DNA of 62,866 nt, filler included, from an uncultured Methanosarcinales archaeon (GTDB taxonomy: Archaea > Nanobdellota > Nanobdellia > Woesearchaeales > CAYSVS01), in the NCBI GenBank assembly GCA_964589485.1. It is 3 parts of 3 records of this genome, joined end to end, with 100 filler letters (N's around TTAATTAATTAA, not from the genome) between each part and the next. Parts side by side here need not be neighbours in the genome. Positions count along the whole stretch, not along the records: positions 1 to 17,372 come from CAZPRK010000002.1; 2 more parts are not named here. One strand, given 5' to 3'. This document shows positions 360 to 38,182 of this stretch, piece by piece. Both the position numbers and the translations under genes were made by a program. The first letter of the stretch is position 1. Every line of letters begins with the position of its first letter. The notes below the pieces were generated by a model. It worked only from the letters and a program-made list of their open reading frames with translations, made no database searches and had not been told where the DNA came from.

Positions 360-396
360 TTTATCAAGTTCAAGGATTGTTGTATATAAAATTAAC

Positions 397-1266
397 TTAA
401 CAAAATAACTTTCCACCAAAGAATTTTTGTTTATAAAAACCTATAGTTTGTACTATGTAACTTAGAAATAATAATACAAATATTAAAGGAAATCTGGGGT
501 TAGTTAAATTATATTTAATTATATTTTTAGTTTGCCATATTTTTAAATGAACGTATTTATTTACATTTTTAATTTCTTTCTTGAAAAAATAATTTCCCTT
601 TCCCCTATTAAAATGCCATGTAATAAATTCTTTTAATTTATATCTTGCAGGATGAGTCATAATCATGTTTGGGTTATATTTTATTTTAATGTCATTTTCA
701 ATTAATTTATGTGAAAGAAAAACATCATCTGCAGTAATTGTTAATTTTGGGTTAAATGCACCTATATCTTGAACAACTTTTTTTATGAATGCACAATTGC
801 CTCCAGCTAAATGATCAGTATACCCATCAATTACTTTCCACATTTTTTCAAAGCCAAGATGAGCTCCGCCAGGATATCCTAATGCTGAAATAGAATCACC
901 TAGAATAGTAGATTTTGGAATTTTTGTACATCCGGAAACTACTTTATTTACTTTAATTGTTTCGTAAATTTCATTTAACCAATTTTCATCAGCTTGACAA
1001 TCTGCATCAATAATTGCAACAATTTCAGAAATAGCTGCATTTATTCCTTCATTTCTTGCCCTTGATAATCCAATTCTAGGCATATTTTTTACTTTAACAT
1101 TGTAAGATTCAGCTATTTCTTTAGTGTTATCGCTACTTCCGTCATTGACAACAATAACTTCAAAATCTTTAAAAGTTTGTTTTTTTAAACTGTCTAGAAC
1201 TACATGAATAACTTTTCCAGCATTATATGCACATACTACGACTGAAATTTTAGGTGTCATTGTCAA
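397..1266 (-). CDS. GT2 family glycosyltransferase
   Basis: ISVVVCAYN, VIVVNDGSSD, GLSRARNEG and DAD (DxD) motifs; C-terminal hydrophobic segment. Confidence 0.9.
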   Translation of the reverse strand: MTMTPKISVVVCAYNAGKVIHVVLDSLKKQTFKDFEVIVVNDGSSDNTKEIAESYNVKVKNMPRIGLSRARNEGINAAISEIVAIIDADCQADENWLNEIYETIKVNKVVSGCTKIPKSTILGDSISALGYPGGAHLGFEKMWKVIDGYTDHLAGGNCAFIKKVVQDIGAFNPKLTITADDVFLSHKLIENDIKIKYNPNMIMTHPARYKLKEFITWHFNRGKGNYFFKKEIKNVNKYVHLKIWQTKNIIKYNLTNPRFPLIFVLLFLSYIVQTIGFYKQKFFGGKLFC

Positions 1267-1957
1267 TTTTTTTTAATGATAAATATTGTGAAATCAATTT
1301 TCTTAACATTGCTAACGATGAAACTACTGCATATATGATTAATGTTAAAGATAAATAATCAAAAATTACTCCAAAAAATAATACATTAAAAGGTTGTCCT
1401 TTTCTGAATAGTTCTGCTAAATAAGCAAAAATACTTTTTTGGTTAATGGATTGTGACATGTATATTTTTCCTAATTTGTCCCATTTTTCTTTCTCAAACC
1501 AACCTGGATTAATGTTAAATAATTTTTCATATAACATTGTTATGCAACAAATTCCACCTAAAAAAATAGCAGAAATGTTATTTGTCATAAAATATACTTT
1601 AAATCCTAATGCTAAAAACAATAAAGGCATTCCAAAAAATAATCCTAAATACTCTAAATATATTCCTGTGAAAGATTTAATATTTTTAGCTCTTGCAATA
1701 TTTCCATCAGTAAAATCTAACAAAGTAACTAAAAAGTTAAATATTATAATTCCAATGACTCTTTGAGTGTATGTTCCTAACATTAAAAATGCGGAAATAA
1801 ATTCAAGTAAAATCCATAAAATTGTAATTTGGTTAGGAGTAATGTTAGTTTTAAGTAATGGTTTCGCAACATATAATCCTAATATGTGCCACATGTAATT
1901 TACTTTACTCCATGTATTTTTTTTAGCTTTTACTTTAAGTTCTTCGATTGAAACCAT
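1250..1957 (-). CDS. CDP-alcohol phosphatidyltransferase family protein (degenerate motif)
   Basis: TPNQIT plus DFTDGNIAR...GIYLEYLGL. Start set at ATG 1957 (MVSIEELK, parallel to paralog MVTLKEIR), about 25-30 nt below a TTTATAAA box. Confidence 0.85.
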   Translation of the reverse strand: MVSIEELKVKAKKNTWSKVNYMWHILGLYVAKPLLKTNITPNQITILWILLEFISAFLMLGTYTQRVIGIIIFNFLVTLLDFTDGNIARAKNIKSFTGIYLEYLGLFFGMPLLFLALGFKVYFMTNNISAIFLGGICCITMLYEKLFNINPGWFEKEKWDKLGKIYMSQSINQKSIFAYLAELFRKGQPFNVLFFGVIFDYLSLTLIIYAVVSSLAMLRKLISQYLSLKKIDNDT

Positions 1958-2040
1958 ATTTTTGTAGCTTTGTTTAATATTTATAAATATTTGCACATAA
2001 AAGAGGAAGTTTTAAAAGATAAAGTAGAGTATTAAGTAAT

Positions 2041-3465
2041 ATGAAAAGCTTTGGTAAGGGAACAGTTTATTTGATAGGAAGTGAATTTTTTTTTGTATTG
2101 TCTAATTATTTAATTCACATTGGATTAGCAAGATTTTTAGGAGTTGAAATATATGGGTTATTTGGAGTATTAATGTCTCTTTACCTGTTAAATAGAGCTT
2201 TTCTTAATACTGGTTTGCCAAGAAGTGTATCTAAATTAATTTCTGAAGAAAAATATGATATAAAAGATATATATAAAACTTCAATAAAAATTCAATTATT
2301 TTTTTCTATATTATTTGCATTAATATACATTTTATTTTCAAGTCAAATTGCAAATTTATTAAAAGATTCAACTTTAATTCCTTATTTGATTCTTTTAGGG
2401 ATAATGGTAATTCCGTTAGCAATATATTCTTTATTTTTGAATGGGTTTGTTAATGGGTTAAGAAAATTTGAATTACAAGCTAAAATGAAAGTATTAAATT
2501 CTTTTTTTAGAATTTTGTTTACTTTTGTATTAATATTTCTTGGGTTTAAGTTATTTGGAGCATTGTTAGGTTTTTTTATCGCAACTATTATGTCAGCTAT
2601 TATTGTAAGGTATTATTTAAAATTAGAAAAAGGTAAAGAACTTAAATGGAATAAAATACTTATCTTTGTAATTCCGTTAACATTTACAGCATTGGCATTA
2701 ACTTTTATTAGGAATGGAAATGTTTTATTTATTAAATCAATGTTACAAGATAACTTTGTTGCAGGATTATATACTAGTGCAGCAACATTAGCCACTGCAC
2801 CATATGCTATCTTCTCTGCAGTTCCAAGGACAATTATGCCTAGTATATCAAATGCTATTGCAAAGGAAAATTACGATTTAATGAAAAAATATATTACTAA
2901 ATCTTTAAGGTATACATTAATTTTAGTTTTACCTTTATGTGTTTTAGTAACTGTAACTGCAAAAGAAACATTAACTTTATTTTATTCTAAAGTTTTTGCT
3001 GAAGCAAGTACAATTTTGCCAATTTTAATTTTTGCATCCTTATTTTTAATTTTATTTGGAGTTTTTGGTTCAATATTAACAGGTCTAGGAAAACCTAAAA
3101 CTGAAACTACTTTAATGGTATTAATATTGATATTAATGATTAGTTTAAATTTTATTTTAGTTCCTTTATTTGGAGTTATGGGAGCAGCATATAGTATTTT
3201 TATTTCAACATTACTAGGATGTTTAATTTCTGGGGGTTTAGTTTGGAATAATACTAAAGTAATAATGAACTTGATAAGTTTTATTAAAATTACATTAGCT
3301 TCAATTTTACTTTATTTTATTTCTTTGAAATTTTTATTTACAGGTATATTTGTAGTTTTAACTTACGGAATTGGATTTTTAATTTATTTTCTTATATTAT
3401 TTGCTTTAAAAGAGTTTAAAGAAGAAGATTTTGTATTTGTTAGAAAGATTTTTAAACAAACTTAG
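2041..3465 (+). CDS. Wzx/MOP-type oligosaccharide flippase
   Basis: 474 aa, about 12-14 TM segments, LARFLGVEIYG and LVPLFGVMGAA motifs; glycosyltransferase context. Confidence 0.85.
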   Translation: MKSFGKGTVYLIGSEFFFVLSNYLIHIGLARFLGVEIYGLFGVLMSLYLLNRAFLNTGLPRSVSKLISEEKYDIKDIYKTSIKIQLFFSILFALIYILFSSQIANLLKDSTLIPYLILLGIMVIPLAIYSLFLNGFVNGLRKFELQAKMKVLNSFFRILFTFVLIFLGFKLFGALLGFFIATIMSAIIVRYYLKLEKGKELKWNKILIFVIPLTFTALALTFIRNGNVLFIKSMLQDNFVAGLYTSAATLATAPYAIFSAVPRTIMPSISNAIAKENYDLMKKYITKSLRYTLILVLPLCVLVTVTAKETLTLFYSKVFAEASTILPILIFASLFLILFGVFGSILTGLGKPKTETTLMVLILILMISLNFILVPLFGVMGAAYSIFISTLLGCLISGGLVWNNTKVIMNLISFIKITLASILLYFISLKFLFTGIFVVLTYGIGFLIYFLILFALKEFKEEDFVFVRKIFKQT

Positions 3466-3479
3466 TTACTTTTGAATAT

Positions 3480-4178
3480 ATGGTTACACTTAAAGAAATA
3501 AGGGAAAAATCAAAGAAAAAATATACTAGTTTTCATAGGATGATGCTTCATACTGTGTCAACACCGTTAACTTGGATCTTTTTACGTTTACCTTTTACAC
3601 CAAATCAAATTACAGTAGGTTGGGGAATATTACAACTTTTAGCTTCATTATTACTTTTAAATGGAAATTATTGGTATATACTAGTAGGAGTTTTAATGTT
3701 TCATTTAGGAACTTTTTTAGATTGCGTAGATGGACAAATTGCAAGATTTAGGGGTATACAATCTGTAATGGGTAATTATTTAGATCAATTAATGCATTAT
3801 ATTACAATTCCTTTCTTTTTTATTTGTTTTACTATAGGTGTATATGTTCAATACGATAATGTAAATTACTTATATTGGGGATTATTGGGAGTATTAAGTT
3901 TTTGGAATTCTAGAATTTTATCTGTAAATCCATTATGGTTTCCTATGGATGAAAGAAGTAAAGTTTCTGATCAGTTTCAAACTTTTGTAACAAGGAAAAA
4001 ATTTGAATTTATTTATGATTCTTTAAAAATTGAGTACCCTTTAAATTTATTTTTCTTTGGAGTTTTATTTAATCTGTCAAATTATGTATTAATTATTTAT
4101 TCTATTATGTTTTTCATTGATTTTATAAAAAGGATAAGTTCACAATATATGAAAATGATGGCTTTAGATAGAAAATGA
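3480..4178 (+). CDS. CDP-alcohol phosphatidyltransferase family protein
   Basis: TPNQIT and DCVDGQIAR...GNYLDQLMH motifs. Confidence 0.88.
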   Translation: MVTLKEIREKSKKKYTSFHRMMLHTVSTPLTWIFLRLPFTPNQITVGWGILQLLASLLLLNGNYWYILVGVLMFHLGTFLDCVDGQIARFRGIQSVMGNYLDQLMHYITIPFFFICFTIGVYVQYDNVNYLYWGLLGVLSFWNSRILSVNPLWFPMDERSKVSDQFQTFVTRKKFEFIYDSLKIEYPLNLFFFGVLFNLSNYVLIIYSIMFFIDFIKRISSQYMKMMALDRK

Positions 4179-5638
4179 AAAAAATATTTTTATTTTTAAT
4201 TTTAGTAAGTCTATTATCTTTTCAAGTAGATGCATATACTTGGAAAACTAAGTTATATGATAATTTTATGAATTTTGAGTTAAGGCCTGTATTAGATAAA
4301 GATAAAGAATGGGTAAGTAAGAATCTTGATCAGATAGGAAAAAATTTAGAATTAATTAATTGTTCAAATAATTTAAATGAAGTATCTTCTAAATTAAAAA
4401 GATATCAAAAAGAATTAAATTCTTTTAATTATTTTGATTTAAAGATAGATTTTAATATGTTTAAAAAGAAAGTTTTTTTATTATATCAGGAAGTAAATTT
4501 AATTAAACGGAGATGTTTAAAAACTGAATTTATTCCTAATAATTTTAAAGAATTTATTTTTAACCCTGATTCTGGTAATAATGTTAATTTAACTGGTGAA
4601 AATTATTTTGTTAAAATAACTAATAAAGGAGATAAAGAAGTTTCACCTGTATTGTTAATTAATAAACGAGATTGGTCTAACTTGAACACTTTAATGTTTA
4701 GTGTAGTAAATAGTTCTATGAATGATAAAGAAAAAGCTTTAGCTATATGGGAATTTGTAAAAAATAATAGATACCATCAAGATAGTCCATTAGAATACCA
4801 ACAAAGAGTTTCAGTAGATATTTTGAATACAATTGGATTTGGAAATTGTGGAACTGCTACTAACTTGGTTGTTGATTTAGCAACAATTGCAGGATTAGAT
4901 GCAAGAGAACATAGGTTAGGTGGACATATAATTTCTGAAGTTTTTTTTGACAATAAATGGAATATTTTAGATGCAGACGGAAAATGTGTTTATTTAAATC
5001 CAGATGGAACGTTTGCAAGTGTAGATGATTTAGAAAATAATATTAGTATTTTAAACTCATGTGACAGTGAAGTTTATGATTATGAATATTTAGAAAAAGC
5101 ATATGCATCTCCAAATAATAATAAAGTATATGCGTATAAAGCTAAAGATAGAGACAAACAGTTTAAGTATATTTTAAGACCAGATGAAACTGTAGTTTTT
5201 CAAAAATATAATACAGGAAAGTATTTTTCAGCTACAAATTATAGTGAACCTAAATTTTATAGTAATAGTTACTTTGTATATAAACCAAAAAATAATAATA
5301 AAAAAATTGAATTTGATTATCCTTACCCTTTAGTTGGTGGGATTTTAAGCGGATATTCTGATTCTAAGATTAAAATTTATTTTTTAGATGAAAAAGGAGT
5401 TCCTGTTAAAATTTTTCAAGGAAAAGGTGAAATTTTAATTGATTTTAGTAAACATTTTAGAAATGGATATGGATTTCCTCAGTTTACTTATACTTTAAAA
5501 TTTTCAAATGAAATTGATAAATTAAACATTTATACTGAAGTTCAAACTGCATCCTCTTCCTTGCCTTTATTGAAAAAAGGTGAAAATCTTGTTGAATTAG
5601 AAGGAAAAGATTTAGAATTAACTTTTGGTGTATCATAA
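4175..5638 (+). CDS. Secreted transglutaminase-like (Cys-His-Asp) protein
   Basis: Sec signal peptide; GFGNCG, GGHIISEV and WNILDAD motifs in transglutaminase-core spacing. Confidence 0.7.
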   Translation: MKKIFLFLILVSLLSFQVDAYTWKTKLYDNFMNFELRPVLDKDKEWVSKNLDQIGKNLELINCSNNLNEVSSKLKRYQKELNSFNYFDLKIDFNMFKKKVFLLYQEVNLIKRRCLKTEFIPNNFKEFIFNPDSGNNVNLTGENYFVKITNKGDKEVSPVLLINKRDWSNLNTLMFSVVNSSMNDKEKALAIWEFVKNNRYHQDSPLEYQQRVSVDILNTIGFGNCGTATNLVVDLATIAGLDAREHRLGGHIISEVFFDNKWNILDADGKCVYLNPDGTFASVDDLENNISILNSCDSEVYDYEYLEKAYASPNNNKVYAYKAKDRDKQFKYILRPDETVVFQKYNTGKYFSATNYSEPKFYSNSYFVYKPKNNNKKIEFDYPYPLVGGILSGYSDSKIKIYFLDEKGVPVKIFQGKGEILIDFSKHFRNGYGFPQFTYTLKFSNEIDKLNIYTEVQTASSSLPLLKKGENLVELEGKDLELTFGVS

Positions 5639-5670
5639 GTTTTATATATTAACTTCTAAATCTTTTTGTT

Positions 5671-7743
5671 ATGTCTATTATTACTATAATATTATTTTTT
5701 GTTTATTTATTTGGACTAGGATATACTGTAAGTAGTTTTTTTAAGAAACAAGAAAGTTTATTAGAAAATCTTTTTATTTCAATTTCGTTAGGGTTAGGTG
5801 TTTTACCAATATTACTCATTTTTTTAAATTTTTTAAATTTTTCATTATTAGATTGGAAAATTTTATTTGTATTAAGTTTAATATATCCTTTGTATAAGTT
5901 GTTTAAAAATTATAAATCTATTTCTTTACCTTCATTTACAAAATCGGATGTTTATATGATTATTGTTATACTTATCTCGTTAGTTTCTTTATGGATTTAT
6001 ACAACGGGAGCTTTTGCATATCCTTATCTTGAAGATGAAGACCCATGGGGACATGCAGTAGGAATTAAGTATGTTTCTTTAGAAAAGTCTGGGTATGATC
6101 CTAGTAATGTTGAAGGAATAGATGAAGTGTTATCTTACATGGATCCATATCCTCCAGCATATGACATTTTTTTAGGAATATTACATCAAACTTCTCCAGA
6201 TATAACGTGGACTATGAAATTTTTTAATGCATTAATAATCTCATTAGGGTTTATATTTTTTTATTTATTTGTTAAACTATTTACTGCTTCAAGGAATATT
6301 GCATTATTAAGTACTTTCTTTTTAGCTTCTTTACCTTCATACTTAAGTCATTTTATTTGGGCACATTCACTTGTAATTACTGTATTTTTTCCAACATTGT
6401 ATGCGTTTTTAAAAATTAAAGAAAATAAAAATTGGTGGATTGTAGCTGCAATTTGTTTTGCAAGTATATGGGTGTCACAGAATTTAAGTCAACCTATAAA
6501 AATTTCTACAATGATGTTTCTTTTTGTTTTTGTTGGTTCAATGGCAGCTTCAAGAGTTATGAAGTATGAAATCTTAGCTTTAATTGTAGGTGGAATGTTA
6601 TCTTGGTTATGGTGGGGAGTTATGATTTTAAAATATTCCTTTACTGGGTTTTTAAGGATATATGGTGGATCAAGAACAAGTAGCATTGTAGGAGAAGGTG
6701 CAATACAACCTTCAATATTTACTAAATTACAAGGTATTATTGGAGCTTTAGTTAGTTCAGGAGGAACTGGGTCAAGAGCTTATAATTTAAATGATTTTTT
6801 AATTGCAAAAGAAACAAACATGATTAATAATCCAATTGGGATAGGATTAATTTTATCTATATTAGTTTTAGTTGCTATTGTTTATATACTCTGGAAATAT
6901 AGAACAAGTATAGTAGAAGATAATAATTCTTGGCTATTGATTACTTTATTCTGGTTAGTTTTTACATTTATGGGTGTAAATGGACAAACTTTTCCAATTT
7001 CTGTTGCAAGGGGACCTTTCCGTGTATGGATGTTAATGGCAATACCTATAGCAATTTTAACTGGATTTTTCTTTGTAAAATTATGGAACATGAAACCGTC
7101 ATTAAAACATTGGGGTATAATTTTCATATTATGGTTATTTGCTTTTTTTTATGGAAGAGGATCTTTTGATTATAGCGGAGTATATTTTACATTTACTTTA
7201 TTGATTATTATAGGCGGAGGATTAATGTATTATACTACTAAAAATGAAAATGTAAGTTATTATAGGTTTTTTTTAATATTAATTCTATTAGGTGTATTGT
7301 TAACTTCAGGAATGCAAAAAATGGCAGTTAATACTGCAATTTGGCCAACTTCAGGGAGTTATACTTCGGGAAAGGAACCTTTTGATTACGCTGCATGGTT
7401 TGATACTATTCCAGATGATACAGGAGTTTTTTTAATGTCACCAAGAGATAAATTAACTATTGGTTATGGTAAATTTAGTTGTGACTGGTGTGCTAATGTT
7501 TTAGATTTCAGGGAAGATATTTTACATAAAAATGTAGATCAAATACATTCTTTTTTGAAAAATAATAATTATGAATATTTTTTAATTAATCCTGCAATGG
7601 ACACTAAATATTTTAATAAATTATTTGGAGAAAATGAAACAAAAGTAATATTACCTCAATTTTACAATGATATGACAACTACAAGAAAATTTATGTTAGT
7701 GCATCAAGTTCCTAATAGCTTCTTTGTATTTAGGGTTAATTAA
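5671..7743 (+). CDS. Polytopic GT-C fold-like membrane glycosyltransferase
   Basis: Many TM helices, acidic first external loop EDEDPWGH and PYPPAY motif, soluble C-terminal domain. Confidence 0.6.
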   Translation: MSIITIILFFVYLFGLGYTVSSFFKKQESLLENLFISISLGLGVLPILLIFLNFLNFSLLDWKILFVLSLIYPLYKLFKNYKSISLPSFTKSDVYMIIVILISLVSLWIYTTGAFAYPYLEDEDPWGHAVGIKYVSLEKSGYDPSNVEGIDEVLSYMDPYPPAYDIFLGILHQTSPDITWTMKFFNALIISLGFIFFYLFVKLFTASRNIALLSTFFLASLPSYLSHFIWAHSLVITVFFPTLYAFLKIKENKNWWIVAAICFASIWVSQNLSQPIKISTMMFLFVFVGSMAASRVMKYEILALIVGGMLSWLWWGVMILKYSFTGFLRIYGGSRTSSIVGEGAIQPSIFTKLQGIIGALVSSGGTGSRAYNLNDFLIAKETNMINNPIGIGLILSILVLVAIVYILWKYRTSIVEDNNSWLLITLFWLVFTFMGVNGQTFPISVARGPFRVWMLMAIPIAILTGFFFVKLWNMKPSLKHWGIIFILWLFAFFYGRGSFDYSGVYFTFTLLIIIGGGLMYYTTKNENVSYYRFFLILILLGVLLTSGMQKMAVNTAIWPTSGSYTSGKEPFDYAAWFDTIPDDTGVFLMSPRDKLTIGYGKFSCDWCANVLDFREDILHKNVDQIHSFLKNNNYEYFLINPAMDTKYFNKLFGENETKVILPQFYNDMTTTRKFMLVHQVPNSFFVFRVN

Positions 7744-7966
7744 AGACGCAACCTTGGTTAGTTAACTTTCCTCCTGCTCCCATGCAGCAGTTATTAATTG
7801 TTCTAGTTTTTTGACAATATTTTTCACCAATTCTGTCACATTTATCTTGAATACATTCTTGAAAACCTTCTTGGTTTTTATCTTGGGATGCTAAAACTGA
7901 GAATATAATTAATAATACAATTAATGCATATAATAAATAAAGTATACTTTTTTGTGATATTGTCAT
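7736..7966 (-). CDS. Small membrane-anchored Cys-rich protein
   Basis: 76 aa, N-terminal TM segment, 6 Cys in the C-terminal half; TATA-like box about 25-30 nt upstream. Confidence 0.6.
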   Translation of the reverse strand: MTISQKSILYLLYALIVLLIIFSVLASQDKNQEGFQECIQDKCDRIGEKYCQKTRTINNCCMGAGGKLTNQGCVFN

Positions 7967-8052
7967 AATGATTATTAATAATTTTATTTAGTTTATATAA
8001 TTTTGTGTTTAAATAAGATATTTATTTAAATGAAGTATTTTTCTTTATATTT

Positions 8053-8838
8053 ATGATAAATGAATTAATTCAAGTAATGAAAAAAGCTGGTAAAGAAGTA
8101 ATGCAAGTTTATTCAACTGATTTTAAGGCTGAAGATAAAGATGGTAGTCCAATAACTGAAGCAGATAGAAAAAGTAATGATATTTTAATTAAAGAATTAA
8201 CTCAGTTTAGATTTCCTATACTTTCGGAAGAATCTGAAGATGATTCTGCAAGACTAAAAAGCGATAAAGTTTTTATTATAGATCCATTAGATGGTACGGC
8301 TGATTTTGTAAATAGAACTGGAGAATTTTCTATTATGTTAGGGTTAGTTGAAAATAATGTTCCAATATTAGGAATAGTATACGTTCCATTGTTAGATGTA
8401 ACTTATTATGCAGAGAAAGGAAAAGGTGCATATAAAATTGAAAATGGAGTTATAACTGAAATTAAATGTAGCAATGTAGAATTATTGGAAAATTCTAGAG
8501 CTATTGTAAGTAGACATCATTTTTCAGATGAAGATAAAAACTTTTTTCAACAATTAGGAATAAAAGAATTTAAACCAAAAGGATCTGCTGGTTTAAAAAT
8601 ATCAGACATTGCAGAAGGAAAAGGTGAATTGTATTTAACTTCTACAAATAAAATAAAACAATGGGATACATGTGCTGCATATTGTATAATAAAAGAAGCT
8701 GGCGGAGAAATGACCGATGTTAAAGGGAATTCTTTAGTTTATAATACTGAAAACGTTTATCATGAGAATGGAATATTAGTTAGTAATGGACAATGTCATA
8801 ATGAAATTGTACAGAAATTTAAAGATTTTCTAAATTAA
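8053..8838 (+). CDS. cysQ: 3'(2'),5'-bisphosphate nucleotidase CysQ (inositol monophosphatase family)
   Basis: SPITEAD, ILSEE, IIDPLDGTADF and WDTCAA motifs. Confidence 0.88.
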   Translation: MINELIQVMKKAGKEVMQVYSTDFKAEDKDGSPITEADRKSNDILIKELTQFRFPILSEESEDDSARLKSDKVFIIDPLDGTADFVNRTGEFSIMLGLVENNVPILGIVYVPLLDVTYYAEKGKGAYKIENGVITEIKCSNVELLENSRAIVSRHHFSDEDKNFFQQLGIKEFKPKGSAGLKISDIAEGKGELYLTSTNKIKQWDTCAAYCIIKEAGGEMTDVKGNSLVYNTENVYHENGILVSNGQCHNEIVQKFKDFLN

Positions 8839-9610
8839 TAAATCTAGATAAAGTATTTTCTTTTAACCATTGAATATATTTTTCATAATCTTCAACTGTG
8901 TCAAATTCAAGCCAACCTCTGGTTGTTTCAATAGGAGTAACTTCATATCCTGCATTAATTATTGCTTGAATAATGCAAGTCATATAACTTTTTTTAAAAC
9001 TTTTACTTCTTAGCCAGGGTTCATCTTTATCGAAATATAATGATTTTTGTTCGTAATAAACTTTCTTTAAAGCTTCTATTCCTTCTTTGGAAAATTTAAT
9101 TAAACCAACATATCTAATTTTTGCTTTATTTAATGGAGCTGTAGTATCTCCTAAGTCAATTATTTTACCATTTTCTACTACTAAACTTTCTGTGTCATCT
9201 TCAGGGTTATCTAACCTTGCTTGCCAATATTCCCAATAATCATCATCTATAGTAACTCCTATATTTGAATTACTTTGAATTATTTTTTCAATAATATTTC
9301 TTTCATAAATAATATCTGCATAACAAACTAAAATATCATCATTCATTTCTTGTTCTGCTTTAAATAAAGTTTCAACCATGTTAGTAGTTGCATAATCTTC
9401 ATTAATGTAATATTTAACATCTGGGATGTTAATTTTATTTGGTTCAAAACCTTTAACTATTGTAATATCCGTTATACCGCATGATTTTAATGTATCTACT
9501 TGTTGTTGAATTAAAGTTTTTCCATTAAACTCCAACATACATTTAGGTAAGTTTTCTGTGTACTTTCCTAACCTTGTCCCCATCCCTGCTGCTAATATTA
9601 TTGCTTTCAT
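8819..9610 (-). CDS. NTP transferase, Cj1416-like CTP:phosphoglutamine cytidylyltransferase (LicC family)
   Basis: AIILAAGMGTRL...PKC, TNMVETLF, YADIIY, WQARLDNPEDDTESL, YMT and GWLEFD motifs resemble C. jejuni Cj1416 as recalled; lies next to Cj1417/Cj1418-like genes. Confidence 0.75.
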   Translation of the reverse strand: MKAIILAAGMGTRLGKYTENLPKCMLEFNGKTLIQQQVDTLKSCGITDITIVKGFEPNKINIPDVKYYINEDYATTNMVETLFKAEQEMNDDILVCYADIIYERNIIEKIIQSNSNIGVTIDDDYWEYWQARLDNPEDDTESLVVENGKIIDLGDTTAPLNKAKIRYVGLIKFSKEGIEALKKVYYEQKSLYFDKDEPWLRSKSFKKSYMTCIIQAIINAGYEVTPIETTRGWLEFDTVEDYEKYIQWLKENTLSRFINLENL

Positions 9611-9685
9611 ATAGATGTGGAATTATAGGTTGTTTATTAATTTATTGTGAGTTATTTTTATATATAAACTGCGCTTAGGAGTTAT

Positions 9686-10258
9686 ATGAAAGAGTACAAT
9701 AGACTAAAGGATTGTGGATTATGCGATATTGCAAAAGGTTCAGAAACTTACAGAACTACTTTTGAGAATGATTATGCAATTTCAGTTATTATTACTAACC
9801 CTTTTAATGCAACACATCAAATGATTTTACCTAAAAGACATATATCAACTTTAGATGAGTTAACTGCAAATGAATCTTTATCATTACATTTGATTCAAAA
9901 TAGTATAATTAATAGATTAATGGATTTATTTCCATCTGAAGAATCAGAAAAATATTCTCCAACTATTTCAATGAATACTGGGATGGCTCAAACACAACTA
10001 CATTTACATATGCAAGCTTATTTGCAGGCATCTCATACAAGACATAGTTTTAGTTATTCTCATGAAAAAAATGACGAAATAGGATTTAGAAGAAAAGGGC
10101 AATGGAAAATAACAGAAGGAGAAGATATTCATACTCATCCTAAAGTTCCAACTGAAGCTTTAGAAGAAATTGCTAAACATATTAAAGGAACAAATAATTT
10201 GAAAAAAGATAGAGACGCTTTAATTGAGATTAATAAACAAATTTTATTTCCAAAATAA
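9686..10258 (+). CDS. HIT superfamily protein (HxHxQ variant)
   Basis: N-terminal CGLC, HQMILPKRH and QTQLHLHMQ motifs. Confidence 0.75.
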   Translation: MKEYNRLKDCGLCDIAKGSETYRTTFENDYAISVIITNPFNATHQMILPKRHISTLDELTANESLSLHLIQNSIINRLMDLFPSEESEKYSPTISMNTGMAQTQLHLHMQAYLQASHTRHSFSYSHEKNDEIGFRRKGQWKITEGEDIHTHPKVPTEALEEIAKHIKGTNNLKKDRDALIEINKQILFPK

Positions 10259-10891
10259 TTCTTTCTTAATAAATGCGTTAATAATTTTATCATTAAATTC
10301 ATCATTAGGCGAATTTCTTTCAGGATGCCATTGAATTCCTGCAATAGGTAAAGTAGGGTGATACAATGCTTCAATTACTCCATTAGCTTCTCCAAATAAT
10401 TTTAATTCAGTAGATAATACACTAGAATTTATACCTTGATTATGGTATGAATTAGTCATTCCATTACCAAATTCTTTAGTAATAACTTCATGATCAACTC
10501 TAACTTTATGTTCTGGATAAAGTAACTTAATATCTTCTATGATTTTACCTTTAAAATATACATTAATAAATTGCATGCCACGACATATTCCTAAAACTGG
10601 AATTTTATTTTTAATTGCGAAGTCAATCATTAAAGTTTCAGTATCATCTCTAATTTTAACTAAAGAATCTTCTTCAGCTGAAGAATATAATGCAGGATTA
10701 ATATCGTTTCCCCCAGTTAAAATAATATAATCTACTTTTTTTAATAATTGATTAATATTTTTACTTCCATTGGGAATTAAAATTAAAGTAAATCCTTTCT
10801 TTTCTAAATAATCTATATAATTTTTTTCTAAAGAATCGACTATGTCTCCATGTTGATTTTTTCCTATTCTTTGTGAAATTGCAGCTATCAT
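10244..10891 (-). CDS. Class I glutamine amidotransferase / peptidase C26, Cj1417-like gamma-glutamyl-CDP-amidate hydrolase
   Basis: ISQR N-terminus, LTGGND, GICRG nucleophile, NSYHN and QWHPE motifs; translationally coupled to the Cj1418-like gene. Confidence 0.78.
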   Translation of the reverse strand: MIAAISQRIGKNQHGDIVDSLEKNYIDYLEKKGFTLILIPNGSKNINQLLKKVDYIILTGGNDINPALYSSAEEDSLVKIRDDTETLMIDFAIKNKIPVLGICRGMQFINVYFKGKIIEDIKLLYPEHKVRVDHEVITKEFGNGMTNSYHNQGINSSVLSTELKLFGEANGVIEALYHPTLPIAGIQWHPERNSPNDEFNDKIINAFIKKELFWK

Positions 10892-13833
10892 TGAAACTCC
10901 TTACTTATTTTTTTATTTTTACAATCTAATGTAATTGTTTCATTATTTTTAATTTTATCGTACAATTCACCACAACCTATTGCAGCTGGAATTCCAAATT
11001 CAGCACATCTAATTGACATATGTGAAGCAACTCCTCCATATTTTGTAATTAGTCCAGAAGGGTTTCTAGTAAATATCCAGTCATACCCTGGATCTCCATT
11101 TTCAATCATTACGATATTACCTTCAATGTTTTCTTTATTACCAGTATCTACAACTTTATTTTTAATTGATTTTTGTGTAATGAAATTGGGTCTTACCGTA
11201 TATGATTGTACTATATCTATATCCCTTTCAGAAAAAATAATAGGCGGCATGAGTAATTTATCTTTTAATTCTCTATCTTTAATTCTTTTTTCTATTGATT
11301 TTTGCCATGAATTAGCATACTCTTCTTGAGTATTATAAACTTTAAATAAATCTTCAACACTTAAGTAAGCTAATTCTTCATTAGTGAAACCCATTTTTTG
11401 ACCAGCTAATGAAATTAATTCTATTGCGTCACTTAAATTCTTAGAAAATTCAAATTTACTAAATTCTCTTGCTTCGGTTGCATTTTTTGCAAATGAAAAT
11501 AAAGTTTTTGTATCAAAATTTAAGCCATGTTCTTTAAGTGAAAAATTAATTTCATCTTCGTTGTTTAATATAAATTCAGGCGTATTTTCAATTTCAACAT
11601 TGTTTAAATCTGTTTTAAGTAATTCTGGGTTTTTATCATATCGTAAACTAGTAATATCATAAGTTCCAGGTCTTAAGTGATAATATTTTTTAATAAAATC
11701 TTCTTTTGAAATAATATTGTTGCATACTTTTTTAAAATCTAAATTAATGTCGGTTGCAACAGTTGAAATTGAATTCATAAAGTTATCAAAATATTCTTGA
11801 GTGATTACATTAGATGTAACTAAACTTTTTAAAATAATTTTTGCTTTAAAACCAAGTCTTGCTAAACGAGAAAATTGTACTGTTCCTAAATTTTTACAAT
11901 CATCTAACAAATATTTAGCAGAGTTAAGTAACTCTTTAACTGAAGAAGATGAATTTATTTTATTTAAACAATTATTTCTATTTTTTTCTAATTCCTTTAA
12001 AGCTTCGAAATCTTTATTAATAGTATTGTTGATTATATTAGTATTAGTTATGTTAAGTAAAGATGTTTTTAATTTATTAACTTCATCTTCGGTAAAACCA
12101 TTTGAGATAAGTTCTTTGGCTCTATCGCTAAAAGAAAAATCAAAACATGTGAATAAAATTTCAAATTCAACTTTATCTTGGAGTTCTGGATTATTTTCTA
12201 ATTTATCTAAATAGAAATTGACTAGTTTTTCTCTTAATTCATGATCTAAAGTATTAGGAATGAATGAATTAAAGCTATGCCGAACGTCAATATATGGTTT
12301 GTTTCCAAATAATACAACTAATTGTGCAGGATTAACATTATAATATCCTTGAGAAGTTCTTGCCTCGTGCCATGCAGTATTGGTTATTATGTAATCGTAT
12401 AAAGAATAGTCTAAATAATTAGGAGTATCTCCAATAATTTCGGCAGGGTTCCAATCTGGCATGTCTGCAAAAATTGTATTTTGCCCTGATAAATGTTTTT
12501 TTGGCTCAGAATAAGAATTAAATTGTATTTTTAAATTTTCTTTTAGTTCTTTAACTTCTTCATCATTATTTTCAGATAATGCTGTAGTTAATGGACGTAC
12601 TTGGAAAATTATTACTTCATCGTTTTTATTTATTGCAAATTCAATATCTAATGCTAATGAAGGAAGTAAAGATTCTATTTCTTTAACTGAATCTATTAAT
12701 TTAACAAACTTGTTAGGAATTTCTTTAGAGAAACGTGAAATTTTAATACTTTTATTTTCAATTCCTTTAGTAACACTATCTGAAGTTCCTGTTGAATCAT
12801 CGTAATTGATAACATAATAAGGGGAACTTTTTTCTAAAGTTCTAGTAAATAATACGCCTGATATGGAAATATTTTTAGTTTGATTTTGTAACAATACTTG
12901 GTTGAATGAACTTTCTGAATTTTTTCCTTTATATGATTTAATTACTTCTTTAACTGCATTTTCAATTTCTTTTTTATCGTTAGAATCTACATTTAAAATA
13001 CTTTCAAAACATCCTGCATTTGATTCTGTCATTGTATCTTCGTTCATTGCAGAACTTCTAACTACAATATTTTTTCCTTTAAAGAAATCTCTAGCTTTAT
13101 CTAAAATCTCTTCCTTTTTATTAAACCATTCTTTAACATTAATTACTAATGCTTCTTCTATTTTAGATTTTTTTAATAATGGTTTTAATGCCATTAATGT
13201 TTTAGCTTTTGTTGAAATTATAGTTTTATTTCCTTTAATTAATTCTGAATCTATATCTTGTTTTCCTTCAATTATTTGTGAAAAATCTGCAATATCTTTT
13301 ACTTTAGTTTGATTTTCTATAATGTAGTTAATTATTTTTGTAGTTGATAACCTTTCATAATAAGGATGTTGAACAATATTGCCATTAATTTCTTTAATGA
13401 ATTCTTTTCCATGAACATTTTTAATATCTGACCCGTGAACTAGAATTAATTCTGCATTTGGAAATTCTTCGTGGATTTTTTGTAAATTTTCAGTAGGATC
13501 ACGATTTTTTTGTACTATAACTTTATCTACAAAATTTAAACTAGAAATTATAGCTTTTCTTTCTTGTAAATTAGCAATAGGTTTCATTCTATATTTTTCT
13601 ACGCCTTCATCTGTAATTACACCGCAAATTAAGTAATCTGCAACAGATTTAGCAAATTTAATGGAATTTAAGTGCCCGTAGTGAAATAAGTCTCCAACTA
13701 CTCCTAAATAAGCTATTTTTTTAATGGGGCTATTGGTAATTTCAACAACATCTCCCTCTTTTATGCCTGATTCTTTAGGAACAGTGATGCATAATTGTCC
13801 ATTGGACTTATTTTGCCATACTATTTTTTTCAT
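10888..13833 (-). CDS. Fusion: AbrB-like domain + HIGH-type cytidylyltransferase + Cj1418-like L-glutamine kinase (PEP-utilising/PPDK-like fold)
   Basis: GQLCITVPKESGIKEGDVVEI (AbrB-like); GDLFHYGH...STTKI (TagD/RfaE-like); VRSSA...EDT...SNAG and FQVRP (ATP-grasp); MPDWNPAEIIG; phospho-His domain GGVASHMSIRCAEFGIPAAIG. Start moved to ATG 13833, below a TATA box. Confidence 0.82.
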   Translation of the reverse strand: MKKIVWQNKSNGQLCITVPKESGIKEGDVVEITNSPIKKIAYLGVVGDLFHYGHLNSIKFAKSVADYLICGVITDEGVEKYRMKPIANLQERKAIISSLNFVDKVIVQKNRDPTENLQKIHEEFPNAELILVHGSDIKNVHGKEFIKEINGNIVQHPYYERLSTTKIINYIIENQTKVKDIADFSQIIEGKQDIDSELIKGNKTIISTKAKTLMALKPLLKKSKIEEALVINVKEWFNKKEEILDKARDFFKGKNIVVRSSAMNEDTMTESNAGCFESILNVDSNDKKEIENAVKEVIKSYKGKNSESSFNQVLLQNQTKNISISGVLFTRTLEKSSPYYVINYDDSTGTSDSVTKGIENKSIKISRFSKEIPNKFVKLIDSVKEIESLLPSLALDIEFAINKNDEVIIFQVRPLTTALSENNDEEVKELKENLKIQFNSYSEPKKHLSGQNTIFADMPDWNPAEIIGDTPNYLDYSLYDYIITNTAWHEARTSQGYYNVNPAQLVVLFGNKPYIDVRHSFNSFIPNTLDHELREKLVNFYLDKLENNPELQDKVEFEILFTCFDFSFSDRAKELISNGFTEDEVNKLKTSLLNITNTNIINNTINKDFEALKELEKNRNNCLNKINSSSSVKELLNSAKYLLDDCKNLGTVQFSRLARLGFKAKIILKSLVTSNVITQEYFDNFMNSISTVATDINLDFKKVCNNIISKEDFIKKYYHLRPGTYDITSLRYDKNPELLKTDLNNVEIENTPEFILNNEDEINFSLKEHGLNFDTKTLFSFAKNATEAREFSKFEFSKNLSDAIELISLAGQKMGFTNEELAYLSVEDLFKVYNTQEEYANSWQKSIEKRIKDRELKDKLLMPPIIFSERDIDIVQSYTVRPNFITQKSIKNKVVDTGNKENIEGNIVMIENGDPGYDWIFTRNPSGLITKYGGVASHMSIRCAEFGIPAAIGCGELYDKIKNNETITLDCKNKKISKEFQ

Positions 13834-13874
13834 AGTACTAGTGTCAATAGTAGGACATATATAAATTTGACTCT

Positions 13875-15053
13875 TCAAATAGCTTTTTTGAGAATATCTG
13901 CAACTAATTTGTTACCTTTTACGCTAAAATGACCACCATATTGATTATCATCTGAGAATAATTCATTTAAATTAGGGTAATTAAGTAATTCCTGTGTTAA
14001 ATCAACAACTTTTATGTTGTTTTTGATTTTATCAATAAATTCAGAGTAAAAATTAGAGTTTTCTTGGATATAAGTAATGTCATCTTTTTGAGGCATCCAT
14101 AAAAATATAGGTGTAAAATTTTGTTTTTTTGCATAAGATTTGAATTCTTGAACTAATTTTGTCATTAAATTAACTGCATTTTTATCATTGTATAAATCTA
14201 CTCTTAATTTACGGTTAATATCCATTATAACTTTCATTGGTTCGGGGTATCCGCCAATTTCTTTTTTGTTAAATTTATATTTGGTAACTGAATAAATTAA
14301 CTTTAAATTTCTTTTTTTCAATATTGAAAATAAATAAGGGAACTTAATCATTTCTTTTTTAAATTTAGTTTCATAGAATGAATCGTATTTTTTTATTTCA
14401 TCTAAATATTGTGTATAATTGTAGAATTTATCTTTAGTATTGATTATATTATTAATTAATTTTAATTCATTATTTTCAATAATATATCTAGGTTTAAAAC
14501 CAAATGTATTGCCAAATTCATTATAATGTTTCCATACACACAAAACTCTTACAATAGTTGAAGGGACAACTCCCATTATTACTGTTTCAGATTTGTTTTT
14601 AGGAAATTCTTTTTTTAATCTTAATAAACTTTGATCTAAACCATAATTTCCAACTCCAAAATTTAATACATTGGATTTAGTTAATTCTGAAAGTTGCCAT
14701 GAAAATGTTTGGTTATCGTTAACTTGTCTTGCAAAAGTAAATGAATCTCCATAACAAGAAATTTTAATTGGTAAGTTTTCATGTCCTGGATTAAGTCTAG
14801 ATCCTTTTTCATTAATATTAAAAGTAGAAGTTCCAATTTTACTAATTTCTGTTTTTGAAGTGTTAGGTTTTCTAATCCAACCTAATTTAGAATCCCAGCC
14901 ATGTGTAAAAAATTTATTTAATCCTTCTTTACTTAGTTCTGGAGTTTCATCTTTTGATGTAATTAACCATTGAAAATCTTTTCTTAAATAATTAATAATA
15001 AAATATGAAACTATTTCAAGTAAAATTAATGTAAATATTATTTTAAAAATCAT
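13875..15053 (-). CDS. Membrane-anchored SGNH/GDSL hydrolase-like protein
   Basis: N-terminal TM; YGDSFTF, NFGVGNYG and GHFSVKGN blocks. Confidence 0.7.
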   Translation of the reverse strand: MIFKIIFTLILLEIVSYFIINYLRKDFQWLITSKDETPELSKEGLNKFFTHGWDSKLGWIRKPNTSKTEISKIGTSTFNINEKGSRLNPGHENLPIKISCYGDSFTFARQVNDNQTFSWQLSELTKSNVLNFGVGNYGLDQSLLRLKKEFPKNKSETVIMGVVPSTIVRVLCVWKHYNEFGNTFGFKPRYIIENNELKLINNIINTKDKFYNYTQYLDEIKKYDSFYETKFKKEMIKFPYLFSILKKRNLKLIYSVTKYKFNKKEIGGYPEPMKVIMDINRKLRVDLYNDKNAVNLMTKLVQEFKSYAKKQNFTPIFLWMPQKDDITYIQENSNFYSEFIDKIKNNIKVVDLTQELLNYPNLNELFSDDNQYGGHFSVKGNKLVADILKKAI

Positions 15054-15931
15054 TTTTTCATCATGTCTGCGAAAAATCCAAATAAAATAACTTGAATTCC
15101 TATTAAAATTAATAACATGCTCAATATAGTTGATGGAAGGCGCCCAATAAATCCAAGAGTAACTAATCTATATAATAACCAAATCCCAATTCCAAAACCA
15201 ATAATTAAAAATATTGCTCCAATTCTACCAAAAAATTTTAATGGTTCGTAGTCACGATAAATTCTAAAAATATTAATCCATGCCTTTATTGCATAATCAA
15301 ATGGATTTTTGAATAATCTACTATCTCTTGTTTTTCTTGCTTCAATTGGAATCTCTGCAATTTTAAATCTTTGCTTTGCAGCTTTAATTATTTGTTCTTG
15401 GGTATAAGTGAATGTATTAATATATTTAATTTCTTGAGCTATTTGTTTTGTGAATGCTCTAAATCCAGTAGTTGTATCTGTTAATTTTACTCCTGTCATT
15501 TTACTTAACACTATAGAAAATGCAATATTTCCAAACCTTTTTAGGAAAGGCATTTCTTCAATTTTTCCTGCAAATCTACTTCCTAAAACTAAATCATATC
15601 CTTCATTTAATTTTTCAATTAATTTAGGAATGTACTCTGGTTTGTATTGGCCGTCAGCATCAGTATGAATAATAATATCTGCATTTAATTCAATACATTT
15701 TTTCATTTCATTCCTGAAAGTTTCAGCTAAACCCATATTTCTTTTGTTAGAAAAAACTAAAGCTCCATGTTGTTTTGCAATTTCTACAGTTTTATCTTTA
15801 CTTCCGTCATCATAAACTAAAATTTCATAGTTATAATTAGTATTAATCATTACTGATTTAATTTCATCTAGAACTCTTCCTAAATCTTGTTCTTCATTAT
15901 ATGCGGGAATAGTAATTATTACTTTAGACAT
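15050..15931 (-). CDS. GT2 polyprenol-phosphate glycosyltransferase (DPM synthase-like)
   Basis: IPAYNEE, DDGSKD, DADGQY, GSRF and DTTTGFRAF motifs; two C-terminal TMs. Confidence 0.88.
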   Translation of the reverse strand: MSKVIITIPAYNEEQDLGRVLDEIKSVMINTNYNYEILVYDDGSKDKTVEIAKQHGALVFSNKRNMGLAETFRNEMKKCIELNADIIIHTDADGQYKPEYIPKLIEKLNEGYDLVLGSRFAGKIEEMPFLKRFGNIAFSIVLSKMTGVKLTDTTTGFRAFTKQIAQEIKYINTFTYTQEQIIKAAKQRFKIAEIPIEARKTRDSRLFKNPFDYAIKAWINIFRIYRDYEPLKFFGRIGAIFLIIGFGIGIWLLYRLVTLGFIGRLPSTILSMLLILIGIQVILFGFFADMMKK

Positions 15932-15933
15932 TT

Positions 15934-16983
15934 TCAGAAAGGCGCATTGCCTCCATATTTTTCAATTAATTCTAAGTCTGCATCTACCATTTTTTGTACA
16001 AGTTCTTTAAATTTAACCTTTGGTTCCCAATTTAAGTTTGTTTTAGCTTTTGAAGGATCTCCTAACAATAAATCAACTTCAGCTGGCCTGAAAAATTGTT
16101 TACTTATTTTTACAACTGGTTTATTAGTTTCAATGTTAATATATTCTTCATCTACTCCTTTTTTACCATTACTTTTAATATTAAATCCTGCGTGTTTGAA
16201 AGCTTCTTCTAGAAATTCTCTAACTGAATGAGTTTCACCAGTTGCAATAACATAATCTTCTGGTTTATCTTGTTGTAACATTAACCACATAGCTTCAACG
16301 TAATCTGGAGTGTAACCCCAATCCCTTTTCGCGTCTAAGTTACCTAAATGTAAAATATCTTGTTCTCCTTTTTTAATTTCAGCAATAGCTTGAGTTATTT
16401 TTCTTGTAACAAAATTTCTTCCCCTTTTAGGACTTTCATGATTAAATAGAATTCCGTTACATGCAAACATGTTATAACTTTCTCTAAAATTAATTGTAAT
16501 CCAATATCCAAATACTTTTGCACATCCATAAGGACTTCTAGGATGGAAAGGAGTTTTTTCAGTTTGAGGAGTTTCTTTAACTTCTCCAAACATTTCACTG
16601 CTAGACGCTTGATAGAATTTTACATCTTTATCTAAACCATTTAATGCTTCAAGTAACCTTAATGTACCTAATGCAATAGTATCGGTTGTATATTCTGGCA
16701 TATCAAAACTAATTTGAACATGACTTTGTGCTCCTAAATTATAAACTTCATCTGGTTTAACTTTGTTTATTATTTTATTAATACTGCTAGAATCGCATAA
16801 ATCTCCATATATTAATTGAAAATTTTCTTCATTATGGAAAGTATACATTTCATCAATTCTACCCCTATTAAATGTACTTGACCTTCTAACTATACCATAT
16901 ACCTTATATCCTTTTTTTAATAAAAAATCTGCTAAATATGATCCATCTTGCCCTGTAATTCCTGTAATTAATGCTTTTTTCAT
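15934..16983 (-). CDS. gmd: GDP-mannose 4,6-dehydratase
   Basis: [43 protein letters not shown] and RPAEVD motifs. Confidence 0.97.
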
Positions 16984-17038
16984 TTTCGTTTCTGATAAAA
17001 AGACAATCTTTAAAAATATTGTGTATTTTTGGAAAATA

Positions 17039-17372
17039 ATGAGTATAAATAAATTTACTAAAGATGGGGAATTATTGGCTATATTAATTAAGTCAAATTA
17101 TTCAGAAGATGGATTAAATTTTGTAACACCTGATGAATTTCCTTTTCAATTGGGGATGCATAACCATAAAAAGGGTTTTATTTCGGAGCCACATGAACAT
17201 CCGCCTTTATTAAATGTAGATAAATTAGAAAGTCAAGAATTTTTTTTAGTAAGAAAAGGAAAGGTAAAAGTTGAATTATATCATAAAAAAGAATTAATAG
17301 ATTCTTGTATATTAGAACAAGGAGATATGATTTTATTAAATTGTGGGCATTCTGTTGAATTTTTGGAAAATT
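17039..17372 (+). CDS. Cupin-domain protein (truncated by spacer)
   Basis: PHEH...QEFFLVRKG...GDMILL..GH cupin motifs; ends at the N run. Confidence 0.7.
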
Positions 17373-17472
17373 NNNNNNNNNNNNNNNNNNNNNNNNNNNN
17401 NNNNNNNNNNNNNNNNTTAATTAATTAANNNNNNNNNNNNNNNNNNNNNNNNNNNNNNNNNNNNNNNNNNNN
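17373..17472. other. Artificial contig-join spacer (N44-TTAATTAATTAA-N44)
   Basis: Six-frame stop linker flanked by equal N runs; adjacency across it is not biological evidence. Confidence 0.95.
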
Positions 17473-38082: not shown

Positions 38083-38182
38083 NNNNNNNNNNNNNNNNNN
38101 NNNNNNNNNNNNNNNNNNNNNNNNNNTTAATTAATTAANNNNNNNNNNNNNNNNNNNNNNNNNNNNNNNNNNNNNNNNNNNN
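38083..38182. other. Artificial contig-join spacer (N44-TTAATTAATTAA-N44)
   Basis: Same design as 17373-17472. Confidence 0.95.

Follow-up and report, generated by a model that had tools for sequence, protein, structure and literature searches.

The stretch of DNA analysed here, called the window below (62,866 nucleotides, filler included, from the genome assembly GCA_964589485.1 of an uncultured DPANN archaeon), carries in a surface-glycan locus three genes that we consider, with a probability of roughly 60%, to be the DPANN-type counterpart of Cj1418, Cj1416 and Cj1417 of Campylobacter jejuni, with CDP-amidate, the expected product, being passed on directly and with the sulfation functions of the same organism forming a separate system. 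In the published accounts drawn on here, the C. jejuni route to the donor of O-methyl phosphoramidate (MeOPN) involves the L-glutamine kinase Cj1418, the CTP:phosphoglutamine cytidylyltransferase Cj1416, the gamma-glutamyl-CDP-amidate hydrolase Cj1417 and the CDP-amidate 3'-kinase Cj1415, the latter acting on the 3'-OH (PMC11800397, PMC6429109). The assignment is built on family membership, intact catalytic residues, conserved gene order and gene fusions, the substrates and products being predicted from these, and such a cell would be expected to bear phosphoramidate on a glycan or a lipid.

All three genes are indeed located where the initial annotation of this DNA had placed them, on the minus strand (window positions 8819-13878); they are not contiguous, however, as plus-strand genes for a HIT-family and a CysQ-like protein are interleaved with them. 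The kinase was correctly described as PPDK-like, with a phosphohistidine domain and the MPDWNPAEIIG motif, but a cytidylyltransferase (CT) domain at its N terminus had been overlooked. The open reading frame encodes 996 amino acids if read from a TTG and 981 if read from the ATG at 13833, and as alignments with homologues begin at residue 16, this ATG, which was also the end coordinate given originally, is the likely start. Pfam recognizes PPDK_N (the ATP-grasp domain) at residues 217-318 and the PEP-utilizers mobile domain at residues 919-988. The MPDWNPAEIIG motif (residues 473-483) is conserved at 93-100% among 115 full-length homologues, and the catalytic His953, in the GGVASHM motif of the swivelling phosphohistidine domain, is present in all of them. 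Against the NCBIfam model NF004508/PRK05849 the protein scores 871.8 bits (equivalog cut-off 501), residues 217-992 matching model positions 7-786 of 789, and the Leptospira copy, which is part of a complete four-gene set, scores 822 bits. We take PRK05849 to be the model that covers Cj1418. The possibility, raised at the outset, of a phosphoenolpyruvate (PEP) synthase or a rifampin phosphotransferase can be set aside, as NF005057 and NF041857 give 70 and 31 bits, respectively, and every model for PEP synthases and rifamycin phosphotransferases remains far below its own cut-off. Automatic names of the Joint Genome Institute (JGI) label five of the 120 homologues listed as "glutamine kinase," these being 53-61% identical to the window protein, compared to 46-62% for the best 120 matches as a whole. 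By family, the enzyme is a clear relative of the Cj1418-type kinases, and L-glutamine is its predicted substrate.

The second protein is a class-I amidotransferase (Peptidase_C26, E 8.9e-34; GATase, E 4.7e-22), whose gene overlaps the kinase stop codon by 4 bp. A PuuD-type enzyme had been named as the outcome that would speak against the pathway, and this is not the type found: the best NCBIfam model is the one for gamma-glutamyl-CDP-amidate hydrolase (NF045546, 94 bits), versus 56.5 bits for PuuD. The ICRGMQ and QWHPE motifs match the catalytic Cys and His/Glu of the solved PuuD structure 6vtv, as well as the motifs of 3fij. The third protein is a nucleotidyltransferase that has LicC (1jyk, E 6.1e-14) as its closest relative of solved structure. 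One of its homologues (P0125, 73% identical) bears the JGI name "L-glutamine-phosphate cytidylyltransferase," and identities to its best 120 matches (63-73%) make it more conserved than the kinase. In a related locus (L006) the amidotransferase and the nucleotidyltransferase are fused into one gene, which supports consecutive enzyme steps, as in Campylobacter.

The association of these genes is also maintained elsewhere. Loci encoding the kinase were retrieved from species-representative genomes (34) and from metagenomes (64), 86 remaining after removal of duplicates. In the 34 genome loci, tblastn located the nucleotidyltransferase in 30 and the amidotransferase in 31, the misses being loci that are short or cut off. 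Where at least 3 kb follows the kinase (57 loci, duplicates removed), the gene immediately after it on its strand encodes the amidotransferase in 43 cases, and the nucleotidyltransferase is found on that strand within 5 kb in 47. The commonest order, in archaeal and bacterial loci alike, is kinase-amidotransferase-nucleotidyltransferase. A subset of 42 loci that extend 5 kb or more to either side, termed well-flanked below, comprises 29 in which the kinase is fused to a CT domain and 13, mostly bacterial, in which it is not, and the nucleotidyltransferase is present in 28 of the former and 12 of the latter. Within the DPANN phylum to which the organism belongs the distribution of the module is patchy: of the 401 genomes sampled, 15 (12 of 281 genera) match NF004508 above its cut-off, and no such match was found in the only further genome from the genus of this organism.

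The N-terminal addition to the kinase is an HxGH cytidylyltransferase of the TagD/ECT/Fom1 type. Pfam recognizes CTP_transf_like at residues 63-183 (E 1e-13), and the domain aligns end to end with the Fom1 CyTase (5x3d, 6.7e-14), with human ethanolamine-phosphate cytidylyltransferase (ECT; 3elb, 1.4e-19) and with TagD (1coz, 4.4e-11), retaining, in the alignment with these solved enzymes, the FHYGH, ..VD.V. and ..STTKI motifs. Among the 115 homologues H66 is conserved at 99%, G68 at 100%, H69 at 96%, D118 at 98% and S178 at 99%, a pattern of purifying selection, and the domain is therefore likely active. It is found in 118 of the 120 best homologues of the kinase, so that the stand-alone architecture of approximately 790 residues expected of Cj1418-type kinases is found neither here nor in most of them; two of these 118 (P0099 and P0101) carry in addition a divergent APS-kinase-like domain at the N terminus. 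When 1.84 billion representatives were searched, the closest relatives of the CT domain proved to be nearly all of the CT-kinase architecture or fragments of it. In a FastTree phylogeny of the kinase part from the well-flanked loci, the CT-fused forms are found in a single clade of DPANN archaea and bacteria of the candidate phyla radiation (CPR; 32 rows, support 99), and the fusion state changes just twice. The domain is the sole match to PF01467 in the genome, and a CT domain to which it is 36% identical is fused to PEP mutase in locus L006. A phosphonate-related (PntC-like) role for the two cytidylyltransferases was considered and judged unlikely, as no PEP mutase was found in a search of the genome.

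Some further observations concern the kinase family. The first 40 residues (window 13714-13833), preceding the CT domain, weakly resemble MazE/AbrB, below the threshold (E 0.013), and this segment is common to the homologues whose alignments begin at residue 16. In three relatives of 1147-1208 amino acids (P0244, P0245 and P0253), each with a CT domain, the PEP-utilizers domain lies near residue 800 and a second, strongly matched PPDK_N is found at the C terminus, an order unlike that of the window kinase. The kinases of two CPR loci (Levybacteria, L028 and L083), both unfused, branch inside the DPANN clade, suggesting that ultra-small archaea and bacteria have exchanged the module; L083 encodes two CDP-alcohol phosphotransferases and lacks an APS kinase.

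The route that we favor would proceed from L-glutamine phosphorylated by the kinase to CDP-L-glutamine, formed by the LicC-type enzyme with CMP taken from CTP, and then, by release of glutamate through the amidotransferase, to CDP-amidate (cytidine diphosphoramidate). The CT domain might capture labile N-phosphoglutamine right beside the kinase, or else form a second CDP-donor for a second phosphotransferase. Cj1415-type kinases were previously said to be missing from the window, and a search with APS_kinase (PF01583) extends this to the entire genome: its matches are one canonical apsK domain (TIGR00455, 197.6 bits), situated approximately 57 kb from the module in a 3'-phosphoadenosine 5'-phosphosulfate (PAPS) synthase, and one sub-threshold P-loop match. 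Any APS_kinase domain at all is found in only five of the 15 module-bearing genomes of the phylum, and ten are without. As a dedicated 3'-kinase is missing, we propose that the phosphoramidate group would be transferred directly from CDP-amidate, with release of CMP, to a lipid-linked glycan or a lipid at the cytoplasmic face, and that a flippase would then move the product outward. The four-gene form does exist elsewhere, including one archaeal locus, as small APS-kinase-like genes of the PRK05541 type (NF004041, over the cut-off) are found beside the module in L013, L030, L033, L035 and L037.

The likeliest transferase for such a step would be one of two membrane proteins of the CDP-alcohol phosphotransferase family encoded in the same island, 7-9 kb from the module. 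The idea derives from the chemistry of the family, in which an alcohol attacks the beta-phosphorus of a CDP-alcohol and CMP is lost, and by this analogy these proteins are possibly phosphoramidate transferases. Genes of the family occur in the flanks of 20 of the 29 well-flanked CT-fused loci versus two of the 13 unfused ones, compared to eight versus 11 for an APS-kinase-like gene or domain and one versus six for a bacterial-type sulfotransferase-like gene. A PF01066 gene is found no further than 10 kb from the kinase in seven of the 15 module genomes, and relatives of the window copy P0242 (E no higher than 1e-12) are present in 12 of these 15 genomes versus 31 of 386 others, counts that include the unpublished genome G359. 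As a broader proposition, one that we regard as tentative and on balance doubtful, DPANN archaea and some CPR bacteria might install P-N bonds independently of Cj1415, through a CT-fused kinase and a CDP-alcohol phosphotransferase with a His variant of the family motif. The two would act as a Kennedy-like pair, transferring phosphoramidate, or N-phosphoglutamine that is trimmed later, directly off a CDP-donor onto a lipid or a lipid-linked glycan, and if this were true, these episymbionts would present a phosphoramidate-bearing surface. In four CT-fused loci (L025, L048, L058 and L059) CDP-alcohol phosphotransferase and APS-kinase genes are both missing, and these loci carry a stand-alone ATP-sulfurylase-like gene (367-392 amino acids) and gene pairs with weak formyltransferase-like matches, a set that may represent a third way to complete the pathway. 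The "c9" gene pairs of other loci were considered as Cj1419/1420-like methyltransferases and rejected, since they have only weak Formyl_trans_N matches.

A number of observations weigh against these interpretations. As to the three module enzymes, NF004508 is named in NCBIfam as a "hypothetical protein" only, the link to Cj1418 coming from the JGI names of homologues and from general background; the nucleotidyltransferase matched no curated NCBIfam model for Cj1416; and the 94 bits of the amidotransferase fall below the NF045546 cut-off of 250. That cut-off appears tight, as the amidotransferases of Leptospira (L033), Omnitrophota (L030) and Dehalococcoidia (L035), for which NF045546 is also the top model and whose loci also encode a PRK05541-type kinase, reach only 99-108 bits. 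As to the phosphotransferases, the full PF01066 motif is D(x)2DG(x)2AR(x)8G(x)3D(x)3D. The better candidate has DCVDGQIARx8GxxxDxxxH, a His replacing the last Asp, and the motif of the second protein ends in GxxxExxxL, so that neither has the canonical form. Related loci have 39 copies linked to the module, and among these the DxxxH ending is common, versus the expected DxxxD, and a second subtype ends in ExxxL/G. The closest relatives of the window phosphotransferase in the phylum sample belong to genomes without the module (G068, G223, G129 and G241), G339 possesses the module without any PF01066 match, and in six CT-fused loci an APS-kinase-like gene and a phosphotransferase occur together, so that the two are not clean alternatives. 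Finally, the notion that CT fusion and the phosphotransferase are co-evolving traits, strong by raw counts, was abandoned, as the kinase tree provides two independent contrasts: with only two changes of fusion state, the association is inseparable from lineage (two pairs, for which a sign test is uninformative).

The foremost alternative, which we consider unlikely, is that the entire Campylobacter-type route operates here, with the APS-kinase domain of the PAPS synthase phosphorylating CDP-amidate at the 3' position, a sulfotransferase-fold enzyme encoded at the left edge of the window transferring phosphoramidate, CysQ clearing the 3',5'-bisphosphate by-product and a small methyltransferase O-methylating the product. 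The parts are at hand. The CysQ-like gene overlaps, convergently, the 3' end of the nucleotidyltransferase gene. The sulfotransferase gene straddles the window edge, and a gene for a 178-residue methyltransferase follows it just outside (the pair occupying G000:C2:31439-32871), before mobile and RHS-type genes, so that the earlier statement of no methyltransferase holds for the window as delimited and fails right beyond its edge. In addition, the sulfotransferase homologue of the archaeal locus L013 (39% identical) adjoins a PRK05541-type kinase (172 bits, cut-off 127), and sulfotransferase-like genes accompany an APS-kinase-like gene in the six unfused, mostly bacterial loci mentioned above. 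However, the only APS-kinase domain of the organism is a canonical one, fused to ATP sulfurylase and distant from the module, and two thirds of the module genomes of the phylum do without such a domain. The edge sulfotransferase, the sole Sulfotransfer_1 match in the genome (83.1 bits), is closer to the copies of L014 (54%) and L031 (41%), and these two loci also encode ATP sulfurylase and canonical APS kinase, and L014 CysQ as well. As its closest copies reside with sulfation genes, the edge sulfotransferase, CysQ and the PAPS synthase are most simply read, from sequence relationships, as a separate, ordinary sulfation system. CysQ as a mark of a 3'-phospho-CDP donor was rejected on the same grounds, the canonical apsK and the relatives of the sulfotransferase. 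The PAPS synthase itself is an unusual triple fusion, a single 922-residue frame (L001, G000:C2:101435-104884) of a pyruvate-kinase barrel, an ATP sulfurylase and a canonical APS kinase; related fusions are pyruvate-kinase-barrel-ATP-sulfurylase in L031 and APS-kinase-CysQ in L014.

Still less credible, in our opinion, is the transfer of N-phosphoglutamine as such, by which the CT domain would make CDP-L-glutamine, a phosphotransferase would attach phosphoglutamine and the amidotransferase would trim it later or in part. The fusion of kinase and CT, with conserved CT motifs, is suggestive of channelling of a labile product; an HxGH cytidylyltransferase with a CDP-alcohol phosphotransferase is the pairing of the Kennedy pathway; two enzymes of each kind are found in one island; and L035 encodes a LicC-like domain fused to the kinase, along with a second, free copy and a phosphotransferase. 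It is the LicC-type enzyme, however, that is retained in all but one of the well-flanked CT-fused loci and is better conserved than the kinase, and its fusion to the amidotransferase in L006 is as expected if it supplies CDP-glutamine. The weakest alternative, a kinase with some other substrate that would form with CT and the phosphotransferase a Kennedy-like route to a phospho-alcohol head group without any P-N bond, may be prompted by the resemblance of CT to ethanolamine-phosphate and glycerol-3-phosphate cytidylyltransferases and is very improbable given an NF004508 score far over the cut-off and above that of the Leptospira copy, and given the Cj1417-like and Cj1416-like partners retained beside the kinase.

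Features of the module and its surroundings in the window, with the basis of each assignment
Feature	Position	Strand	Basis or remark
Sulfotransferase gene, 5' part	3-419	-	full gene G000:C2:31972-32871, 299 amino acids
Second, more degenerate CDP-alcohol phosphotransferase-family protein	1250-1996	-	PF01066, 27.9 bits (cut-off 22)
Wzx/MurJ-type flippase	2041-3465	+	Polysacc_synt, 1.5e-23
CDP-alcohol phosphotransferase-family membrane protein, candidate transferase	3480-4178	+	PF01066, 44.5 bits (cut-off 22)
CysQ-like 3'(2'),5'-bisphosphate nucleotidase	8053-8838	+	Inositol_P, 4.9e-52; TIGR01331, 207 bits (cut-off 228.8)
LicC/NTP_transf_3-type cytidylyltransferase, Cj1416-like, 263 amino acids	8819-9610	-	Pfam, E 1.2e-15
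HIT-family protein, motif HLHMQ	9686-10258	+	Pfam DcpS_C, 7e-8; HIT, 5.4e-5
Class-I glutamine amidotransferase/peptidase C26, Cj1417-like, 215 amino acids	10244-10891	-	NF045546, Pfam
Fused cytidylyltransferase and glutamine-kinase-like enzyme	10888-13878	-	NF004508, PPDK_N, CTP_transf_like, PEP-utilizers
N-terminal HxGH (TagD/ECT/Fom1-type) CT domain of the kinase	13312-13722	-	residues ~53-189
Membrane-anchored SGNH/GDSL hydrolase-fold protein	13875-15053	-	directly upstream of the kinase
AglJ-like family 2 glycosyltransferase (GT2)	15050-15931	-	TIGR04182, 159.6 bits (below the cut-off of 325)
GDP-mannose 4,6-dehydratase	15934-16983	-	TIGR01472, 544 bits

The window consists of three joined contigs (G000:C2:32453-49824; C4:1-20610, with an internal gap of 100 N; and C15:1-24684), with N runs, those of the linkers set around TTAATTAATTAA, at 17373-17472, 32903-33002 and 38083-38182, so that the true context of the module is limited to positions 1-17372, corresponding to the first of these segments, and genes past 17372 are not its neighbors. 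The surroundings reported initially, a GDP-mannose dehydratase, a flippase and a glycosyltransferase, are real genes by profile searches. The dehydratase, the AglJ-like GT2 and the SGNH genes are packed upstream of the kinase gene on the minus strand, overlapping or spaced by a few bases. The SGNH protein has the GDS motif and His375 invariant in 23 homologues; its predicted model (pLDDT, the predicted local distance difference test, 91.7) matches in the PDB the folds of GDSL esterases, acetyl-xylan esterase, PatB and DltD, and the Atlas assigns it to SGNH/AlgX-like clusters. It was considered as a P-N transferase and rejected, its fold and its relatives being those of acyl esterases and O-acyltransferases, which make a glycan O-acyl enzyme more likely, and judging by the model this is probably what it is. 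The HIT gene is located between the amidotransferase and nucleotidyltransferase genes, divergent from the latter across a 75-bp spacer. The family alignment retains HxHx(H/Q), and such a gene is found in eight of the 29 well-flanked CT-fused loci and in none of the 13 unfused ones. Nucleotide conjugates are the substrates of HIT enzymes, which act on their alpha-phosphate, and by analogy a housekeeping role on CDP-amidate is possible.

Contig G000:C2 extends past the window on both sides, and its flanks, examined as L040-L042, reveal a large glycan island, with a DegT aminotransferase, a GT2, a formyltransferase, a second flippase, a family 1 glycosyltransferase (GT1) and two genes of the nucleotide pyrophosphatase/phosphodiesterase family (Phosphodiest). 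Fusions involving NeuB and CMP-sugar synthetase are found downstream, where two fusion proteins, an 876-residue AP_endonuc_2-NeuB-CTP_transf_3 protein (L041:10487-13117) and a 574-residue NeuB-methyltransferase protein (L041:13967-15691), suggest nonulosonic-acid synthesis. Upstream of the island (L040:5907-14471), a 1777-residue RHS/FG-GAP/TcdB-middle-domain protein precedes a pair of YD-shell-like paralogues, after which come a fragment of an IS91-type zinc-binding transposase and a DUF4258/DUF2283 pair, forming a mobile or polymorphic-toxin-like border. Judging by the organisms named as sources of its nearest homologues, the archaeon is of the Woesearchaeota/Pacearchaeota/Nanoarchaeota type (DPANN). 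The genome measures 1.16 Mb, with an estimated completeness of 99.9%, and its DNA is contained in marine and seawater metagenome runs, none of the sequencing runs listed with this DNA being an RNA run. On another contig (window 61560-61644), ARAGORN predicts an unusual 85-nt tRNA-Asn with the anticodon att.

The significance of these genes is best seen in relation to known systems. According to a review (PMC6429109), no organisms other than Campylobacter species had until then been found to carry O-methyl phosphoramidate on sugars, and in Campylobacter phase-variable capsule modifications are described as affecting bacteriophage infection (PMC3417653). If the variant is real in ultra-small archaea, P-N surface chemistry would be far wider than one studied pathogen, and, as most of these genomes are without the 3'-kinase, a different transfer mechanism would exist. 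The surface decorations of DPANN archaea are the likely interface with their hosts and viruses. The searchable literature yielded nothing on DPANN archaea and this pathway, a preprint on Borgs, extrachromosomal elements of Methanoperedens, being the sole archaeal link (bioRxiv 10.1101/2024.11.05.622173). No archaeal example is known to have been characterized, as the initial annotation had it, but the pathway has already been predicted, as a MeOPN-type cluster recognized from predicted structures, for the Cobalt Borg, as the available passages of that preprint describe. The likeness is in an archaeal-associated set of predicted glutamine kinase, hydrolase and cytidylyltransferase within a glycoconjugate region, and in the fusion of a cytidylyltransferase to an enzyme of phosphorus chemistry, PEP mutase in the Borg as described and the kinase here. 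In contrast, the Borg set is reported from an extrachromosomal element and the present one is on a DPANN chromosome, and those passages make no mention of CDP-alcohol phosphotransferases or of an absent 3'-kinase.

A second comparison is with Kennedy-type pairs, in which ECT, choline-phosphate cytidylyltransferase (CCT) or TagD is matched with a CDP-alcohol phosphotransferase, and with the Fom1 CyTase-PEP mutase (5x3d). The CT domain aligns with these and keeps their motifs, but its partner here is of the glutamine-kinase type, not a choline/ethanolamine kinase or a PEP mutase, and the phosphotransferases are without the last Asp of the family motif. As to Campylobacter itself, the three enzyme families are common to both, by family models and by names, and in both the module is part of a surface-glycan locus. 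The kinase here differs by the additional N-terminal HxGH cytidylyltransferase domain, the genome by the lack of any Cj1415-type kinase and of sulfotransferase-like genes of the type found beside the bacterial modules, and the neighborhood by its partners, which are CDP-alcohol phosphotransferase, HIT and SGNH genes. Overall, the module is a widespread variant of a known pathway, rather than a new kind of system, and automatic JGI names already label homologues of its enzymes.

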